Positions 2,681 through 55,142 of a stretch of DNA of 64,000 nt are shown piece after piece (the stretch's first letter is position 1; every line of letters starts with the position of its first letter). The DNA is taken from positions 1 through 64,000 of the IMG/VR virus record IMGVR_UViG_3300011008_002687; one strand, given 5' to 3'. A program made the translations under genes and the position numbers. The notes beneath the pieces were generated by a model, which saw only the letters and a list, made by a program, of their open reading frames with translations, did no database searches and was not told where the DNA came from. This stretch comes from a virus. Lineage: Duplodnaviria > Caudoviricetes.

Positions 2681-4033
2681 TTATTCGCCTACTTTCTCTT
2701 TCTTGGTGTATAGCTCATGCTCACCGCTTGCAATCTTGTAGCTTTCATCGTCTGAGTAGGAGAAGCCAAACATTGCCAGGATGTCATACAGTCGATCTAA
2801 CTTCTCGCCGGCACTCTTGCTGTATGTATTGTTCCACTCCATCAGATTCAAGTCCTTCAACTTCCAGTAAGCTACCGCAATCTTCTGCTGCAGGATAGGA
2901 AGTTTGGCCGCCTTTTCTTCTGCGGTCTTTCTCTCTTCCTCTGTTATGTCCTTTGCGTATAGTTCTTTTCCGAGAATGGCCTGCGTAATGTCGTTCTTTC
3001 CGATCCACGTAGAATCACACATGAACAGGTTCCAAATCAACATATCCAGTTTCTCGGTTTCCTTTACCGGCTCAACCTTACCGTCCAGGATATTCCGAAC
3101 GAAATCGCCCATATCCTCAAACATAGCCTTATATTTTGCTGTCAACTCTCTCTTATTTTTCTTCTTCTCTCTTTCCTCCAAGTCCTGCTTGGTAGGCTCT
3201 TTCTTCTTTGTCTCCGCTTTCTTGATGATGTAGAATGTGCCGTATCTCGTCAGATAGAACAGCTCGCCACCCTTCCCTACCTTCAACTGCTTAGGTACTT
3301 TATCGGTAAGGCTGTAGTCTGCGACTTTATCCCATTTTCCGGAATAAAACTCATTATCTGCCTCTTTGGGAGCCGCCTTGATGTCTCTCTTCTTGCAGAG
3401 TGCGATAAGTTCCTTCTCATTCTTTGCCTGCAGTTCCTCTCTTGCTGCTGATCTTGCCTTGTTTGCCAGGTCTCTCGAATCCCTGGCCTCTTTCAGAATC
3501 TTATTCCTCGTCTTGACATTCTCGACCTTCTCCAGTGAGTAAAGGTCCGTAAGCGATAACTGAAACTCTTCGCTCTCTGCCTTCTCACGCAGCACCTTCT
3601 CATTCAGCTTTGCTACATTCAGTCTGTGATTGATCGTCGTCTTGGAAAGTCCGGTTTTCTGCTCCATCTCTTCCATTCCGAATCCAAAGTCCGCAAAGCA
3701 CATCTGAATTGCCGCCGCCTCTTCGTAAATCTTCAAGTCCTTGCGGTTCATGTTCTCGGTCAGCATTGTCGTAACCTGGTCCCTGTCGCTCATATCCTCG
3801 ATGATAACGCAGGGAGCGGTCTCAATGCCCGCCTGCCTTGCCGCCGTAAGTCTGCGGTTTCCGATAACCACAAAATACTTCCCTGGATCTTCCGGATCGG
3901 GAACAACGGTTAGATTCTGCATGATGCCGTTTTCCTTGATGCTCTGTGCCAACTCTTCGATTCCCTCATACTCCTTCCGGACATTCTTGGGGTGAATCTT
4001 CAACTGCTCCAACTTGATTTCTACTACTGCCAT
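2681..4033 (-). CDS. ParB/RepB/Spo0J family protein
   Basis: HPKNVR, LAQSIKENGIMQNL, GNRRLTA, ENMNRKDL and following HTH. Confidence 0.88.
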   Translation of the reverse strand: MAVVEIKLEQLKIHPKNVRKEYEGIEELAQSIKENGIMQNLTVVPDPEDPGKYFVVIGNRRLTAARQAGIETAPCVIIEDMSDRDQVTTMLTENMNRKDLKIYEEAAAIQMCFADFGFGMEEMEQKTGLSKTTINHRLNVAKLNEKVLREKAESEEFQLSLTDLYSLEKVENVKTRNKILKEARDSRDLANKARSAAREELQAKNEKELIALCKKRDIKAAPKEADNEFYSGKWDKVADYSLTDKVPKQLKVGKGGELFYLTRYGTFYIIKKAETKKKEPTKQDLEEREKKKNKRELTAKYKAMFEDMGDFVRNILDGKVEPVKETEKLDMLIWNLFMCDSTWIGKNDITQAILGKELYAKDITEEERKTAEEKAAKLPILQQKIAVAYWKLKDLNLMEWNNTYSKSAGEKLDRLYDILAMFGFSYSDDESYKIASGEHELYTKKEKVGE

Positions 4034-46334: not shown

Positions 46335-47783
46335 CTAACTTCTCCAATAACTGTCTTTGCTCAAACTATCTGTCGGCGGTGCGGAGTATGTCATGCCGCT
46401 TTCAATCGTATTAAAGGCATTTGCTCCTGCGTCCACCATATCCTTGAAATCAGACTGAGGAAAGCTCTCATACTGGTTAAAGAACATTCCGTTCCAGTCT
46501 GCTACCAAAACATCTACAAAGCCGACATCCATTGTCTCGGTACCTTGCCACATTGCCGAAAACGGCTCTGCTCTCGTTACCTTGTCGCCGGATTCCGGCA
46601 TGATCTTTACTATAAATCCGGACAGGAGTTTCATATAACTTTGAGCCTGCTCCTTTCCTGCCTGGCCGGGATCTTGCGGAAGTCTCTGACATACCCTGCC
46701 GTATGTCGCCCTGTCTGACTGCGCCGTCATGAGAATTAGTTTTCTCACATCGGATGCTGCCAACCTTCTATTGATTACATCTGCCACAATGTACCGACCA
46801 TTTCTTCGCTTTCCGATAAGCACTCCTGCTGTATATGCCGGGTTTCCCTCTTCGTCCTCGGATGTGGCTGCAAGGTCCCAACCTCTGCACCATAGGATCA
46901 CATCGTTCGGGATTTCCTCGACCATGTTCACCTGTGTACGCTTGAACATAAGACCTGCCGCCGCCTTGATCTTCCAGTTACCATAAAGCAGACGCTCTCT
47001 GTCAACCAATGGCAAAGCCTGCAGGTTCGCCAAATAGCTCGGATCATTCTTCATGAGGATTTTATTATCCTGCAGCGTACTCGCTATGAATGTCACGCTC
47101 TTTGGCATTGTTTCGGCCTGCTCCTGTCCTATGCCGTTTTCGACTGCTACCGCAACAGCCTCTTTTCTGCTGTCCGTCCAATGGATAACCTCGTTTACTC
47201 TTACCATCCACCTGACTTTTCCGGACCTTTCCGGTATCGGGTATCCTGTTTTCTGATCTATCCACCATGAGATAAACTCTGCCACCCAACTGTCTGCGTC
47301 GGGGTTGCAGGTGGCTCTCACATATGGAGTAACACCGGAGTCTGTTCTATTTCGGGACAGCATATAAAAAAACTGATGCTCCGTAAAGTGCGTCAGCTCG
47401 TCGAAACCGATCATTGCTATCTGTGAACCTTGCCATGATTCGCAATCATCGTCATTATTCAGATGTGCGAAATTGACCGTAGCGCCTTTTGTGAAACACC
47501 AATGTAGTTTAGGTGTCTTTAGCGGATAGGCACCTTGCACGTAGCTGTAAACTTTTCTTGCACTATCCCATAAACCACCGGGGGCGGTTATCTGAGTGTA
47601 CTCCTTTCGGAATATTACCGCATTGAAGTTTGAATTGTTCATGTGCCGCATTGGTTCCAGGAGTAAGCCGTAGGTCTTTCCTCCACCTGCCGCTCCTCCA
47701 TAAATACAAATATCTGCAGGAGTAGCCAGGAACCTTTCCTGTGGTCCTTTCTGTGGTGCCAGGATAATCTTATTCTTCGCCAT
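46335..47783 (-). CDS. terL: Terminase large subunit
   Basis: GGAAGGGKT Walker A, FDELTHF, TCNP, RGWDLA, DMVDA; start refined to MAKN. Confidence 0.93.
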   Translation of the reverse strand: MAKNKIILAPQKGPQERFLATPADICIYGGAAGGGKTYGLLLEPMRHMNNSNFNAVIFRKEYTQITAPGGLWDSARKVYSYVQGAYPLKTPKLHWCFTKGATVNFAHLNNDDDCESWQGSQIAMIGFDELTHFTEHQFFYMLSRNRTDSGVTPYVRATCNPDADSWVAEFISWWIDQKTGYPIPERSGKVRWMVRVNEVIHWTDSRKEAVAVAVENGIGQEQAETMPKSVTFIASTLQDNKILMKNDPSYLANLQALPLVDRERLLYGNWKIKAAAGLMFKRTQVNMVEEIPNDVILWCRGWDLAATSEDEEGNPAYTAGVLIGKRRNGRYIVADVINRRLAASDVRKLILMTAQSDRATYGRVCQRLPQDPGQAGKEQAQSYMKLLSGFIVKIMPESGDKVTRAEPFSAMWQGTETMDVGFVDVLVADWNGMFFNQYESFPQSDFKDMVDAGANAFNTIESGMTYSAPPTDSLSKDSYWRS

Positions 47784-48240
47784 CGTTATCCCTCCCATTA
47801 TCCGGAAGATAAATCTGCACTTCCGTATCATCACTGCCACTGTCCGGAAGTTCCATAGGACGGTCTTGCCAACGGTCACGCTGTCTGTTTTTAAGCCAAA
47901 AGCACATAGCACCGACATCTGGAGGAACGTGCTTTTTCGTGTTCTCAACTCTGACAGGTTTTACACTTCCGTCTTTGTCATACTCCACGATTTTCTTCTC
48001 TTCCACGTAATCATAACCCGTAGCTCTCTCATAGAGACTGCGGATCACCTTCGCATCTGATACGCCTTTTCCCTTTGACAATGCCTCCGCAAATGTCGGA
48101 TGATCTTTCTTCCAACGGCCTATGGTTCGTTTCGATACACCCATTGCTTCGGCTATCTCTTCCTCGGTGGCACCCATAGCGGCCAAAGACCACGCCCAAT
48201 CATCATGGTAGTCGGCATTGTACTTTGGTTGTGCCGCCAT
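47770..48240 (-). CDS. terS: Terminase small subunit
   Basis: HTH plus PPDVGAMCFWLKNR; upstream of terL. Confidence 0.85.
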   Translation of the reverse strand: MAAQPKYNADYHDDWAWSLAAMGATEEEIAEAMGVSKRTIGRWKKDHPTFAEALSKGKGVSDAKVIRSLYERATGYDYVEEKKIVEYDKDGSVKPVRVENTKKHVPPDVGAMCFWLKNRQRDRWQDRPMELPDSGSDDTEVQIYLPDNGRDNDGEE

Positions 48241-48246
48241 ACGCTA

Positions 48247-49173
48247 TTAACTCCCGGCTATATAGTCAGCGCAAAGGTACTCAATAAGCTGCCACCGGTT
48301 TTTGCTTGTTATGGTGCCTTCTTTCTCCGCTTTCTTGATTGCCTGCTGTATTACCTTAGCCGCCTCGCCTGGTACTGCGTTGCTGCCAAAGAGCTTTGTC
48401 AAGTAGGTCCAATCCTCTTCCTCATTGTACCCTGCGTCGTCCATCTTCTCGTTGACCGACTGCACCATAGAGTGAACTGCTGCTCCGACATTTCGGATGT
48501 CCGTAAATTTCTGATACTTCGCAAGTGCCTCTACGAACTCCTGGCACTGATCGTATGCCGCTACTCCGATGATGTCCGGAGAAGTGATTTCCAGGTTCTT
48601 CACAAGTGCATCCATATCTTTGACCTGGTGCGGCAGAAACGAAAAGGTCACATTCTTAAAATCAAAAGAAACCGCAGGGCTGAGCATTTTGTCATACTCA
48701 GATAGCGGCTCTTCCAATATGTCCTTGCCTATGAAACTCTCGATCATATCATCAACATCGGTTATCATCTTCACGATTTCCCGGAGCGTCGAATCATCAT
48801 CGAATCCGGAGATCGCATTGTGTGCCAACTGCTTTGCGGCAATTTGACTTCGAGATAACCCGCTTTCATCCACAAGAGCGATAATCTCTTTCAAACCCGC
48901 CGCCCTTGCGCTTTTTATTCGGTGGTGGCCGGATATGATCTCGATTACTCCGTCCACATTCACCAGGAGAGGCAGGCTTTCAAGCTGTCCTCTCTTCGCT
49001 ATGTTGGCCGTCAACTGATCCTGCATCTCATTCTTCATAATGCGGGCGTTGATGTCCTGCTCTTTCAATTTGTCAATGGGTACCTTCGCTATTACTAAGC
49101 CGGAACCCATATCATAAATCACTTCGTAGTTTTTGCTCTGCTCTCCTGCCATTTGATTTCCCTCCTTAGCCAT
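48247..49173 (-). CDS. ParB/sulfiredoxin-like protein
   Basis: INARIM, IISGHHRIKSA, QLAHNAISG; start may be MAGE. Confidence 0.82.
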   Translation of the reverse strand: MAKEGNQMAGEQSKNYEVIYDMGSGLVIAKVPIDKLKEQDINARIMKNEMQDQLTANIAKRGQLESLPLLVNVDGVIEIISGHHRIKSARAAGLKEIIALVDESGLSRSQIAAKQLAHNAISGFDDDSTLREIVKMITDVDDMIESFIGKDILEEPLSEYDKMLSPAVSFDFKNVTFSFLPHQVKDMDALVKNLEITSPDIIGVAAYDQCQEFVEALAKYQKFTDIRNVGAAVHSMVQSVNEKMDDAGYNEEEDWTYLTKLFGSNAVPGEAAKVIQQAIKKAEKEGTITSKNRWQLIEYLCADYIAGS

Positions 49174-50519
49174 TCAATCATTGTCTGATGTTCGTTTCTT
49201 CCCTCAACCAGTTCAGCCTCATATGTCAGCTTATAGCCGTTCTGCTTATCCTCTGCCCTATTTACCAGTTTCATGATGCCCCGTACCTCTTTGTTTTCCG
49301 GGTACTTGGTAAGCATAGCAGTCCGCATTTTTACGACCTTTTCCCGGTCTATGGTGTCAAGGAGCGTATCAACAAAGCCTCTGTTCTGTGCAAGCATATA
49401 GCATAACCGCCCCAAGCGGTATTTCTCGTGTGGTACCTTCATCACATACCACACAAATACGGAATCAGCCGCCATCTTCGATATGCCGAAAACTCCGGCC
49501 ACATATCCGTCTATCAGCAACGCCCTGTTCCAAGTAGCTGAGGAACCGACAAAGTTATGCGTCCATAGCACTCTGTAATACTGGGCTGTTGCCGCCTTAA
49601 TCGGTATGATCTGCACCTTGCTTTCCTCGGTTATCACATGGTCCCTGGGTAGCATACTGCAGTCAAGCGGTTCCAGTTTACTCTCTGCAGGACGCTTGAT
49701 CTTCTTTCCATTCGCAAGGGCCGTTGCCTCTTCCTCCCGGTTCGTAGTGATGTAAGCATTGAGGTCTGCCCTGGTACCGGACCGGGCGTATATCGTATAG
49801 CCTACTGCCTCGCCTACTTTCTTTTCCTGGTAGCAAAGCACCAATGCCTTTGCGTCCATGCACATATCATAGAACTGCTTATGTCCTGTCTCCGGATCAA
49901 ACAACTGGTACTCCGGTTCCTTCCAGGTCATTTTCCCCTGGGTGTCGTAGAACTTCTCATATCCGGAGAAGTATGTCGGCGGATTCGCTATCACGATAGC
50001 GTGGGGATCATCCAGTACCTCTTCCAAGTGTTTCCACATATCAAGCGGTCTGTAACTCATGCCATGCAGGAGATTTCTCACAACCTCAATCTGCCGATTG
50101 ATGCTCTCAATATGTTCTGCTCTTCGCTCTCTGAGGTCAACAAGCATATTGTGAAAATACTCGTTGCCCGCACTCTTCGATGTTCTGAGGTACAACTGTG
50201 CGTACAATGCCGTTGCAGGATCAAGCAGCTCTTCATCACTAAAGCCTTGTGCATGAATTTCCAAAGGCTCCAATGACTGCCCTGTTATCGCATACCCAAG
50301 CACCGTAGGCATCATAGACACATCACTCGTCTCGATCTGCTCCGGCTTAAATCCATTCTGCACTGCAAGATTGCTCATTGCGAATGTTCCGGCACAAGGC
50401 TCAACGAACCTCGTATAGCCCGACTTCGCTGCTGTCTCAATCAATTTCACGAGAAAACGCTGCTCGGATGTTCCCAGGCACCCAAGAAACATTGCTCCCG
50501 GATTCATAAAAAATGCCAT
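49119..50519 (-). CDS. N6-adenine MTase-like protein with putative Mom/GNAT-like C-terminal domain
   Basis: FVEPCAG (motif I), TSDVS, IANPPTY (motif IV variant); C-terminal IIPI..A....HNF....DGYVAGVFG. Confidence 0.7.
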   Translation of the reverse strand: MAFFMNPGAMFLGCLGTSEQRFLVKLIETAAKSGYTRFVEPCAGTFAMSNLAVQNGFKPEQIETSDVSMMPTVLGYAITGQSLEPLEIHAQGFSDEELLDPATALYAQLYLRTSKSAGNEYFHNMLVDLRERRAEHIESINRQIEVVRNLLHGMSYRPLDMWKHLEEVLDDPHAIVIANPPTYFSGYEKFYDTQGKMTWKEPEYQLFDPETGHKQFYDMCMDAKALVLCYQEKKVGEAVGYTIYARSGTRADLNAYITTNREEEATALANGKKIKRPAESKLEPLDCSMLPRDHVITEESKVQIIPIKAATAQYYRVLWTHNFVGSSATWNRALLIDGYVAGVFGISKMAADSVFVWYVMKVPHEKYRLGRLCYMLAQNRGFVDTLLDTIDREKVVKMRTAMLTKYPENKEVRGIMKLVNRAEDKQNGYKLTYEAELVEGRNEHQTMIEWLRREIKWQESRAKTTK

Positions 50520-50557: not shown

Positions 50558-50613
50558 AAAAAGCTGAGGTCAGCCAAAGTATCAACCCCGTAATTTTTGA
50601 TACCCACCTCAGC
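50558..50613 (-). promoter_or_regulatory. Long hairpin plus U-tract in MTase leader
   Basis: GCTGAGGT/ACCTCAGC and GTATCAA/TTGATAC stems then TTTTT. Confidence 0.6.
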
Positions 50614-50622
50614 ACATTGCAC

Positions 50623-50656
50623 AAAAAAGGCACCGTACCCTGCCGGATGCGATGCC
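50623..50656 (-). terminator. Intrinsic terminator after tRNA-like gene
   Basis: GGCATCGCATCC-GGCA-GGGTACGGTGCC followed by TTTTTT. Confidence 0.75.
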
Positions 50657-50664
50657 GTTGTTTT

Positions 50665-50736
50665 TGGACCGGAACCCCACAATGAAGTGGAATCTCTCTG
50701 ATGGAATCAGAACGTGCTACTTTACACCAGTTCCGG
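50665..50736 (-). tRNA. Non-canonical tRNA-Gly(UCC)-like gene
   Basis: Cloverleaf: CCGGAAC/GTTCCGG + T + CCA; D stem GTGT/GCAC; anticodon stem TTCTG/CAGAG with loop ATTCCAT; T stem TCCAC/GTGGG. Confidence 0.85.
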
Positions 50737-50741
50737 ATATA

Positions 50742-51257
50742 TTAAATCCCTGCCCCTACCAAATCGAAGATGCTCATTTGCTTTGCCTCTTCCTGTGCAG
50801 GTTTCTTATTGTCAACCTTACTCTCTGCCTTTTTCTCCGCAGGCTTAGGTTTCTTTACCTTCGGCTCCGACGGATCGGGCAGCTCTTCAATCAACTCGCC
50901 TGTGTTCTCAGCCCACCATTCTGCGAATACCGTTCTGTGACACCAATCTTCCGGGATTCTCACATCCTCATAACAGAGCAGGACTAACTCTTTTCCTTCG
51001 TCCTGGGCTTTCTTATCGAGCCTCTCGACCATGTTTATGATCTTCTCTGTGCCGATGTCCTCTAACTTTCCGTAGTATGCAGGCTTGAAATCTTCAAGGC
51101 TCATGTTCAGCATATATCCCTTCGGTGCCAGGGAGAAACACTGCTCTCTCAGCTCGTAGCCAAGCGGCCACTTTGGTTTCCCTATACTGATCCCTACCGG
51201 ATAATACTTACCACTCTGCAATTCTTTGTTGCTGTACCGACTAACCCAAATAGCCAT
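50742..51257 (-). CDS. DUF488-like protein
   Basis: LAP...LVLLCYE...CHR. Confidence 0.75.
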   Translation of the reverse strand: MAIWVSRYSNKELQSGKYYPVGISIGKPKWPLGYELREQCFSLAPKGYMLNMSLEDFKPAYYGKLEDIGTEKIINMVERLDKKAQDEGKELVLLCYEDVRIPEDWCHRTVFAEWWAENTGELIEELPDPSEPKVKKPKPAEKKAESKVDNKKPAQEEAKQMSIFDLVGAGI

Positions 51258-51294: not shown

Positions 51295-51305
51295 ATTATA
51301 CCACA
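51295..51305 (-). promoter_or_regulatory. Extended -10 promoter of DUF488 operon
   Basis: TGTGGTATAAT about 40 nt upstream of the start codon; weak -35. Confidence 0.55.
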
Positions 51306-51433
51306 ATTTTTCCCGTTCTTAAAGTCTGCAATATGCTGAATTTTCGCCATTTGTTCAGTATTTCAGACGGCAGAAAACGATATAAAACGGTGGTATTTAG
51401 TAACAAATTAGAAACACGGTTCCGACATCCGGA

Positions 51434-54931: not shown

Positions 54932-55142
54932 AGTGTTTCCTTTGTATGCACTAAGCCGAACCTTCGACACGCACCGGAACCGGTGCATCCTACCAGTACA
55001 GCCTGTTTAGAATTTTGTCAGTGTTTTGCCAAGCGGCACGGTGACACGGTTGCAGTTCAAACTGGATGCAGAACACGCTGCATCACTTATTTATTGAAAC
55101 ACCCACCCGGTGTTGACCGGATGGGTGCTTTTTAGTGCATGT

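Follow-up and report, generated by a model that had tools for sequence, protein, structure and literature searches.

A tRNA-Gly-like RNA linked to a Dam-like/GNAT fusion enzyme in phages of gut bacteria: a candidate aminoacyl donor for DNA modification

Introduction

Modification of DNA that depends on a tRNA has so far been demonstrated for a single enzyme, Mom of phage Mu, which uses ordinary host Gly-tRNA. Silva et al. (2026, PMC13219725) demonstrated the transfer of glycine by Mom from host Gly-tRNAGly to the N6 position of adenine in double-stranded DNA (dsDNA), and mention no phage-encoded tRNA. Dedicated non-proteinogenic tRNAs were considered to be restricted to staphylococcal cell-wall synthesis. 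Staphylococcal non-proteogenic tRNAGly species feed Fem transferases and avoid EF-Tu, and Rietmeyer et al. (PMC7826273) state that such tRNAs had been found in staphylococci only. We analyzed positions 1-64,000 of the IMG/VR provirus record IMGVR_UViG_3300011008_002687 (111 kb); this whole stretch of 64,000 nucleotides (nt) is called the window below. It contains a tRNA-Gly(UCC)-like RNA and, downstream of it, the gene of a fusion enzyme. With confidence slightly better than even, we interpret this RNA as a private aminoacyl donor for a Mom-like, tRNA-dependent modification of DNA adenine. The locus would then unite both ideas in a widespread phage family of gut bacteria. The two features are as follows.

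50665..50736, minus strand: tRNA-Gly(UCC)-like RNA, 72 nt with encoded CCA (from sequence, minimum-free-energy fold, covariance model and covariation)
49119..50519, minus strand: gene of a fusion enzyme of 466 amino acids (aa) (Pfam PF22555 and PF22559, AlphaFold model)

Like Mom (PF25680, PDB 8BV8), the window enzyme is a phage protein of the GNAT fold tied genetically or biochemically to tRNAGly. Adenine N6 in dsDNA is the acceptor for Mom and the one proposed here, and protection of phage DNA from restriction is the likely purpose in both. The two enzymes have no detectable sequence relationship, and Mom has a helix-turn-helix-like insertion, whereas the GNAT domain of the window enzyme is fused to a Dam-like domain. 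Mom uses ordinary host tRNAGly isoacceptors; here, in contrast, the phage encodes its own atypical RNA, and sister clades of the window enzyme carry Lys-, Pro- and Arg-type RNAs.

The staphylococcal tRNAGly species NP1-3 (S. aureus and S. epidermidis; FmhB, FemA and FemB) come from extra tRNAGly(UCC) genes that keep recognition by glycyl-tRNA synthetase (GlyRS). In these, as in the window RNA, the D and T arms are altered and G18G19 is missing. They supply aminoacyl transferases of the GNAT fold rather than the translation machinery, and are believed to evade EF-Tu and the ribosome. They are cellular, belong to a separate lineage and act on a peptidoglycan-precursor acceptor, and they have G1-C72, a normal-sized T arm and a T-loop UUC changed to UGC or UGU. 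The RNA described here, in contrast, is phage-borne, has C1-G72 and a shortened T stem, keeps UUC, and is paired with an enzyme of a DNA-related type.

Ordinary phage tRNAs are also cloverleaf genes with an encoded CCA, and they often have the specificities Lys(CUU), Gly(UCC), Pro(UGG) or Arg(UCU). Unlike these, the window RNA fails standard tRNA models, the decoding positions of its family are unconstrained, and it is fixed beside one enzyme family with which it co-diverges. The GNAT toxins TacT, AtaT and ItaT recognize a specific charged tRNA at its acceptor end (TacT reads U73 and G71 of tRNAGly), but they acetylate the amino acid with acetyl-coenzyme A (CoA) and occur in toxin-antitoxin pairs, whereas the window enzyme has no antitoxin, no conserved CoA motif, a Dam-like fusion and a late-operon context. 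The underlying kinds, tRNA-dependent GNAT transfer and non-proteinogenic tRNA, are known. Our literature search found no paper on a phage tRNA coupled to PF22555/PF22559 enzymes, nor the origin of the Pfam entries DUF488-N3a, DAM-like-phage1 and GNAT-phage-like.

Structure and conservation of the RNA

The acceptor stem of the window RNA has 7 base pairs (bp), opening with C1-G72, C2-G71 and G3-C70, and is followed by U8 and G9. The D arm has a 4-bp stem and a 6-nt loop, AAAGUA, with a single G and no GG. The anticodon arm has a 5-bp stem and the 7-nt loop AUUCCAU, with anticodon UCC, pairable A32 and U38, U33 and A37. A variable region of 4 nt leads to a T arm with a 5-bp stem closing with C53-G61 and a 6-nt loop, UUCAUU, and the RNA ends in U73 and an encoded CCA. 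This cloverleaf was the minimum-free-energy fold (-26.2 kcal/mol, z = -3.4), and 0 of 200 shuffled sequences folded as well. Among the features of a canonical tRNA, the window copy has the four stems, U8, a 7-nt anticodon loop with U33 and the 3' CCA; in the elbow, it lacks G18G19, G53-C61 and a 7-nt T loop with T54-A58. From the bacterial tRNAGly identity set it has U73, C2-G71, G3-C70, C35 and C36. It does not have G1-C72, its first pair being C1-G72, as in all 27 homologues described below.

The initial annotation of this stretch had reported a 72-nt cloverleaf with CCA, Gly determinants, C1-G72 and a pairable A32-U38, and every item was found in the minus-strand sequence. The low tRNA-finder score that it expected was also observed: ARAGORN at default settings called no tRNA anywhere in the 111-kb record, the window included, and the Rfam tRNA model RF00005 gave no match to the window RNA even at E<=10. 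When the threshold was relaxed, or in metazoan-mitochondrial mode, ARAGORN placed a tRNA-Gly(tcc) at exactly 50665-50736. A covariance model, R1, was built from 27 distinct homologous RNAs; it scored the window RNA at 78.8 bits (E 4e-20), which was the only strong match in the window or elsewhere in the 111-kb record.

Homologous loci were collected through the enzyme. The close set comprised 57 IMG/VR loci (76-91% aa identity), and a prophage set comprised 18 loci in genomes of Lachnospiraceae, Blautia, Acetatifactor, Oscillospiraceae and other Clostridia. In the 27 distinct homologues, 99.6% of stem cells were paired, compared to 86% in shuffled alignments and 23-47% when the partners were slid. 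Changes on both sides were seen in 13 of 21 pairs; every one of the five pairs of the anticodon stem, four of the T stem and three of the acceptor stem are among them. None of 500 shuffles attained the observed values. Such compensatory changes had been named in the initial annotation as a check, and the strong covariation, together with conservation in all related loci, agrees with its view that the RNA is not a product of random decay. The structure is conserved. G-U pairs are frequent in the stems, and the structure therefore exists only in the minus-strand RNA.

C1-G72, C2-G71, G3-C70, G4-C69, U8, U73, C35 and C36 were invariant in the 27 homologues, and CCA was nearly always present. A typical homologue has a 5-nt D loop, A-A-G-N-A, in which one conserved G was kept in all sequences. 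Most have a T arm with a 4-bp stem closed by G-C, a 7-nt loop UUCAUYG and U instead of A at position 58; the UUC of the T loop was retained in all. The 5-bp T stem and 6-nt loop of the window copy are a variant of its own lineage. The elbow had initially been described as lost. The absent G18G19, the inverted C53-G61 and the 6-nt T loop are all real in the window copy, but the word overstates the case: since homologues keep one D-loop G and the T-loop UUC, the elbow is reduced and not wholly lost.

The RNA is not a host tRNA. In Blautia fusiformis, RF00005 found 59 tRNAs, and the prophage RNA was not among them; R1 gave one match in each Blautia genome, the prophage copy, and did not pick up host tRNAGly genes. 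Gly-type RNAs were only about 50-58% identical to host tRNAGly, and the host tRNAGly(UCC) has G1-C72. Because the stems have diverged, blastn-short with the RNA as query recovered only 2 of the 57 loci.

Linkage of the RNA to the enzyme gene

Each of the 53 close IMG/VR loci in which sequence upstream of the enzyme gene is available had the RNA there, and so did each of the 17 prophage loci (Lachnospiraceae, Blautia, Acetatifactor and Oscillospiraceae) with a long enough upstream stretch. The family is much larger than these sets. A GNAT-domain search of 1.8 billion representatives gave 382 cluster representatives at E<=1e-3, mostly fusions of 460-510 aa, and a degenerate DNA pattern for the GNAT motif yielded 80 further IMG/VR loci, all true family members.

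We surveyed 132 family loci with at least 300 nt of upstream sequence, some of them from the same contigs. A strict cloverleaf scan gave 123 sense-strand matches, compared to 1 on the reverse-complement control. The remaining 9 loci were inspected by hand with a simpler signature scan, which gave 8 clear cloverleaves and 1 degenerate one (L077); the strict scan had missed these 8 because the start-codon call truncated them or because the D arm had an insertion. Every one of the 132 enzyme genes was thus preceded on its own strand by a tRNA-like gene, which is a clear cloverleaf in 131 loci and degenerate in 1. The linkage is obligate. Enzymes merely about 30-35% identical to the window protein were still accompanied by a tRNA-like RNA, and distant members kept the gene order: a small DUF488 gene, a gap with the tRNA-like gene, the enzyme, ParB_N and terminase.

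The cultured Faecalibacterium phage FP_Brigit (L076, MG711465) is a family member with this gene order, in which ARAGORN found a tRNA-Lys(CUU) at 3187-3263, just before the enzyme homologue; the deposited annotation omits this gene. A gene for S-adenosylmethionine (SAM) synthetase lies at 418-1596, about 1.6 kb upstream of the tRNA-Lys(CUU).

Several loci had variant arrangements. In L012, L037, L044, L051, L052, L131, L112 and L158, the RNA and the enzyme gene are separated by an inserted gene of opposite orientation, and the RNA is kept 650-960 nt away. Two tandem Gly-type RNAs are present in L067 (125-197 and 202-272), and L048 has an extra Gly-type copy about 210 nt upstream of the enzyme gene, with G1-C72, a GCC anticodon and G33. 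In a clade at 35% identity (L087, L089, L094, L117, L128, L143, L145 and L147), the tRNA-like RNA ends 3 nt before the enzyme ATG, so that maturation and translation initiation would share the same few bases. RNAs of this L094 group do not encode CCA; U73 is followed by CUG.

The Rfam model RF04354 (Plastid-ycf2 5'UTR) gave scores of 28-35 bits antisense to the RNA at L094:3422-3495, L089:4391-4464 and L145:2238-2311, and in L158 and L112. These matches were rejected as a model artefact, as the model hits the antisense of tRNA-like RNAs and real tRNAs alike. RF04354 seems to act as an antisense-tRNA detector, and was useful in locating the RNA of the 35%-identity group.

RNA classes and decoding positions

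The survey yielded 65 distinct RNAs, which were sorted by anticodon, discriminator base and identity of the accompanying enzyme to the window protein.

Enzymes at least 75% identical to the window protein: anticodon NCC, U73, Gly-type
Enzymes 66-68% identical: UCC in a 6-nt loop, U73, Gly-type
Enzymes 48-61% identical, including FP_Brigit: CUU, A73, Lys-type, with a conserved bulged nucleotide in the T stem
One locus, L124: UGG, A73, Pro-type, with C1-G72 and G37
Enzymes 30-35% identical: UCG or UCU, U73, Arg-like, with C or G at position 33 or a 6-nt loop

The combination of NCC and U73 occurred in 45 distinct RNAs. Published synthetase determinants (Giege and Eriani 2023, PMC9976931) are U73, C35, C36 and C2-G71 for Gly; U35, U36 and A73 for Lys; G72, G35, G36 and A73 for Pro; and, for bacterial Arg, C35 and U or G at 36, with A, G or U at 73. 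The anticodon and discriminator of the phage RNAs switch jointly as the synthetases require, giving NCC with U73, CUU with A73, UGG with A73 and G72, and UCU or UCG with U73. In the Gly group, C35, C36, U73, C2-G71 and G3-C70 never varied.

Other positions were free to change. Position 33 was U in 49 distinct RNAs, G or A in 5 each and C in 1; position 37 was A in 47, U in 8, C in 4 and G in 1. Position 34 of the Gly group was U, C or G, with UCC, CCC or GCC anticodons among close relatives. Anticodon loops of 6 or 8 nt were found in L134, L142, L079, L081 and L074, with U-C-C or U-C-U still inside. This pattern, in which 35, 36 and 73 are held while 33, 34, 37 and loop size are free, fits selection for charging and not for decoding. 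The initial annotation had proposed a chargeable, non-translating RNA. Comparison of the homologues supports the first part of that proposal and the relaxed constraint at decoding positions supports the second, both at the level of sequence.

RNA class co-diverges with enzyme clade. The classes were mapped onto a quick maximum-likelihood tree (37 non-redundant enzymes, midpoint root, some long branches), from which only clustering is claimed. RNA class required 7 changes, the minimum for 8 labels, compared to 17.8 in shuffles (0/200).

These observations bear on whether the RNA is an ordinary, divergent phage tRNA that aids glycine decoding and stands beside the enzyme through unrelated conserved synteny. 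tRNA genes are common in phages; U33, A37, an anticodon loop of 7 nt and an encoded CCA are all present in the window copy; and, among the relatives of Lys and Pro type, several are called by ARAGORN with its default settings. We nevertheless regard this explanation as improbable. Close relatives alternate UCC, CCC and GCC, which read different codons, several lineages have G or A at position 33, and L134, L142, L079 and L081 have anticodon loops of 6 or 8 nt. Most Gly-type copies have a 4-bp T stem and U58, and Lys-type copies a T-stem bulge. The RNA fails the Rfam tRNA model while 59 host tRNAs pass it, the synteny persists down to about 30% enzyme identity, and RNA class tracks enzyme clade.

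A decoy for, or a resistant substitute under, host defenses that attack tRNA (anticodon nucleases, GNAT toxins or CCA-pyrophosphorylating toxSAS) has an even smaller chance of being correct, in our judgment. Phage tRNAs are known to counter tRNA-targeting defenses such as PARIS/AriB, FaRel2 targets tRNAGly via its acceptor stem, and the flipped 1-72 pair could escape a reader of that stem. Bait for an anticodon nuclease should preserve the anticodon loop, yet here, positions 35 and 36 aside, no part of the RNA varies more than this loop. A resistant substitute must decode, and variants with 6-nt loops or without U33 cannot. Neither role explains the fixed pairing and co-divergence with one enzyme family.

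The acceptor end was shared across classes. Of the 65 distinct RNAs, 61 start with CCG and end with CGG regardless of class. Lys-type RNAs were 66-78% identical to the Blautia host tRNA-Lys(CUU), which indicates that genuine tRNA-Lys genes were their source, but in them the 1-72 pair is flipped. The common C1-G72/C2-G71/G3-C70 end is not explained by synthetase rules, and the simplest reading is that the system itself would require it, for example for enzyme recognition. The acceptor end is what FemX, L/F-transferase and TacT each read.

The fusion enzyme

Pfam recognized two domains in the window enzyme, PF22555 DAM-like-phage1 (7e-72, 242 bits) followed by PF22559 GNAT-phage-like (2e-34, 119.5 bits), for which the curated cut-off is 27 bits. 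The enzyme was modeled by AlphaFold with a 79-sequence alignment, giving a predicted local distance difference test score (pLDDT) of 95.4; the single sequence alone gave 34. It consists of two folds. In the model, residues 9-264 matched DNA-bound E. coli Dam (Z 14.4, root-mean-square deviation [rmsd] 3.2 A, 195 residues), and also superposed on T4 Dam and DpnM. Residues 297-440 were modeled as a GNAT fold, with known GNAT structures at Z 10-12 and a top match at Z 11.9. The longest aligned stretch for this domain was with Mu Mom (8bv8_A; Z 10.8, rmsd 3.2 A, 137 residues). Weak matches to glycine N-methyltransferase were confined to Rossmann motif I.

In the Dam-like half, motif I (E-P-x-x-G) and D66 were conserved among the 79 sequences. 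Motif IV reads N-P-P-(T/S)-Y, with an extra residue compared to DPPY; N was present in 59% and Y in 66% of these sequences. In the GNAT half, the CoA-pyrophosphate motif R/Q-x-x-G-x-G/A was not conserved, the consensus being R-L-x-R-L, and the near-invariant residues were H321, D337, R368, R371, T400, E408, K410, R413, G414 and Y433. When the Gly and Lys clades were compared, the residues that separate the classes clustered on GNAT strand beta4.

Position 357: W in the Gly clade, M in the Lys clade
Position 359: V in the Gly clade, G in the Lys clade
Position 361: K in the Gly clade, T in the Lys clade

The clade with UCN-type RNAs has mostly S/A/G at these three positions, which are candidate determinants of amino-acid specificity. 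The differences on beta4 would fit a roomier pocket for a larger amino acid in the Lys clade.

Organization of the module

The module lies entirely on the minus strand, in the order promoter-like site, DUF488-N3a-like gene, RNA, terminator hairpin, second hairpin, enzyme, ParB_N, and small and large terminase. The RNA and enzyme gene are at the head of the packaging operon. The remaining features are listed below.

51295..51322, minus strand: sigma-70-like promoter preceding the DUF488 gene, 10/12 matches with an extended -10 (consensus match only)
50742..51257, minus strand: DUF488-N3a-like gene, weak Pfam match to PF22751, stop codon 5 nt ahead of the tRNA-like RNA
50623..50656, minus strand: intrinsic-terminator-like hairpin and U run, 7-bp GC-rich stem with a long loop, 8 nt past the CCA
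50558..50613, minus strand: conserved long hairpin with a U run behind it, in the enzyme-gene leader (RNAalifold, 12 loci)
48247..49173, minus strand: ParB_N (ParB-CTPase fold) gene overlapping the end of the enzyme gene (Pfam and PHROG)
46335..47948, minus strand: large terminase gene (Pfam Terminase_6N/6C)
54942-55043, minus strand: Rfam RT-17 RNA, 50.9 bits, above the gathering score
53741-54988, minus strand: reverse-transcriptase gene (RVT_1, PHROG 1423)

The promoter at 51295..51322 is likely to start the transcript that contains the tRNA-like RNA. The upstream open reading frame was assigned by Pfam to DUF488 or DUF488-N3a in 7 of 9 diverse loci, with all sampled RNA classes represented, and a C-terminal tail resembling 'Q-x-S-L-F' recurred in the DUF488-like proteins. 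The hairpin at 50623..50656 was passed over by a consensus terminator scanner because its loop exceeds 8 nt; a terminator hairpin after the RNA recurs in homologous loci with compensatory loop and stem changes. The leader hairpin at 50558..50613 has 18 pairs, 3 of them with compensatory changes, and its tip was rated terminator-like at 50575-50562. It sits between the terminator of the RNA and the ribosome-binding site of the enzyme gene, and conserved words UGUGCAAU and UUUUUGUAUA flank it. The leader hairpin may be an attenuator, a late-promoter element or another regulatory element for the enzyme gene.

This layout could suggest that the cloverleaf is an element of the DNA or of RNA processing, such as an att remnant, a pac- or cos-linked structure, or a signal for RNase P or Z at the 3' end of the DUF488 mRNA. 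The RNA begins 5 nt past a stop codon, precedes a terminator and lies near packaging genes, and tRNA-like structures are used elsewhere as processing signals. An element of the DNA is at odds with the G-U pairs and strand-specific covariation, which indicate RNA structure, and a processing signal would not need C35, C36 and U73 or the matched anticodon and discriminator switches. We give such an element very little credence. An att-site remnant in particular was rejected, as the full cloverleaf is unlike any host tRNA and lies in the interior of the phage, not at an end.

Upstream of 51434, a lysin and the reverse transcriptase with its RT-17 RNA probably belong to a neighboring phage. The RT-17 RNA is directly upstream of the reverse-transcriptase gene and slightly overlaps it; it is outside the tRNA module and absent from homologous loci. 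A role of the tRNA-like RNA as a primer for this reverse transcriptase was rejected, as the reverse transcriptase probably belongs to the neighboring phage and is absent from homologous loci. Weak Rfam matches to Ysr155/RyfD, Evf-2 and GcvB near the locus (E 2.6-8.8) were attributed to chance.

Proposed mechanism and significance

Under the donor interpretation, the RNA would be co-transcribed with the DUF488 gene and excised by host tRNA-processing enzymes. Host GlyRS would load it with glycine by way of U73, C2-G71, G3-C70, C35 and C36, and the charged RNA would be a donor reserved for the adjacent enzyme. The reduced D and T arms, together with the non-U33 or odd-sized anticodon loops of relatives, would keep the charged RNA from EF-Tu and the ribosome, and the enzyme would recognize it by the common C1-G72/C2-G71/G3-C70 acceptor end. 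The Dam-like domain would bind DNA and flip out a target adenine, and the GNAT domain would take the aminoacyl group from the CCA end and pass it on, presumably to adenine N6. From the gene linkage and the Dam-like fusion, we infer that Gly-tRNAGly would be used to modify adenine N6 in dsDNA.

The sister clades have Lys-, Pro- and Arg-type RNAs, and the family may therefore install different aminoacyl-derived groups. Such groups would be put on the DNA just before packaging and would guard it against host restriction. We extend the proposal only tentatively to the whole PF22555/PF22559 family, as aminoacyl-tRNA-dependent DNA modifiers in which each clade has a private, translation-insulated tRNA (Gly, Lys, Pro or Arg) marked by a shared acceptor end; this generalization is possible, but we would sooner expect it to fail than to hold.

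The linkage and co-divergence show a partnership between RNA and enzyme, not the direction of its chemistry. The RNA could be the substrate of the enzyme (methylated, or acylated on its aminoacyl group), a scaffold or guide, a sensor or regulator of the downstream gene, or a donor to a different acceptor such as protein, cell wall or lipid. A substrate role has precedents in GNAT toxins that target aminoacyl-tRNA and read U73 and G71, the conserved hairpin and U run between the RNA and the enzyme gene would suit regulation, and SAM-type motifs are kept in the Dam-like domain. The fused Dam-type fold for flipping DNA adenine (Z 14.4) points instead to a DNA target, as does the position at the head of a packaging operon beside ParB_N and terminase. 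The bulk differences on beta4 between the Gly and Lys clades fit amino-acid recognition, and a toxin-like role suits a late structural operon without an antitoxin poorly. We consider a partnership of this other kind unlikely, although it is the most probable of the alternatives.

Several points weigh against the RNA as a donor for DNA modification. In structure, ordinary acetyltransferases match the GNAT domain as well as Mom does (Z 10.8), and the resemblance to Mom is at the level of the fold only. The enzyme GNAT domain had no PF25680 match at E<=10 (Mu Mom itself, 2e-75), hhalign of a 16-sequence GNAT profile against Mom gave a probability of only 0.15, and PDB searches with the enzyme by phmmer and by profile did not find Mom. 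The Gly-type RNA is without G1-C72, a Gly determinant in E. coli and T. thermophilus (PMC9976931), although the hosts appear to have an alpha2-type GlyRS, as a search of two Blautia genomes gave no GlyQ (PF02091). The nearly canonical Lys- and Pro-type relatives could also decode, and the acceptor could be something other than DNA. Finally, the Dam-like domain may simply be an active methylase, to judge from its motifs, and with a SAM synthetase gene nearby in FP_Brigit it may use SAM.

The interpretation of the RNA as an aminoacyl donor is directly testable, as FP_Brigit is cultured and Blautia lysogens exist. If true, it would account for a class of 'pseudo-tRNAs' skipped by annotation pipelines, provide natural examples of tRNAs excluded from translation, and define an acceptor-stem code for the pairing of enzyme and tRNA. 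It would also predict new DNA hypermodifications: gut phages would decorate their DNA adenines with varied amino-acid-derived groups, some of them cationic, from donors free of competition from the ribosome or the host.

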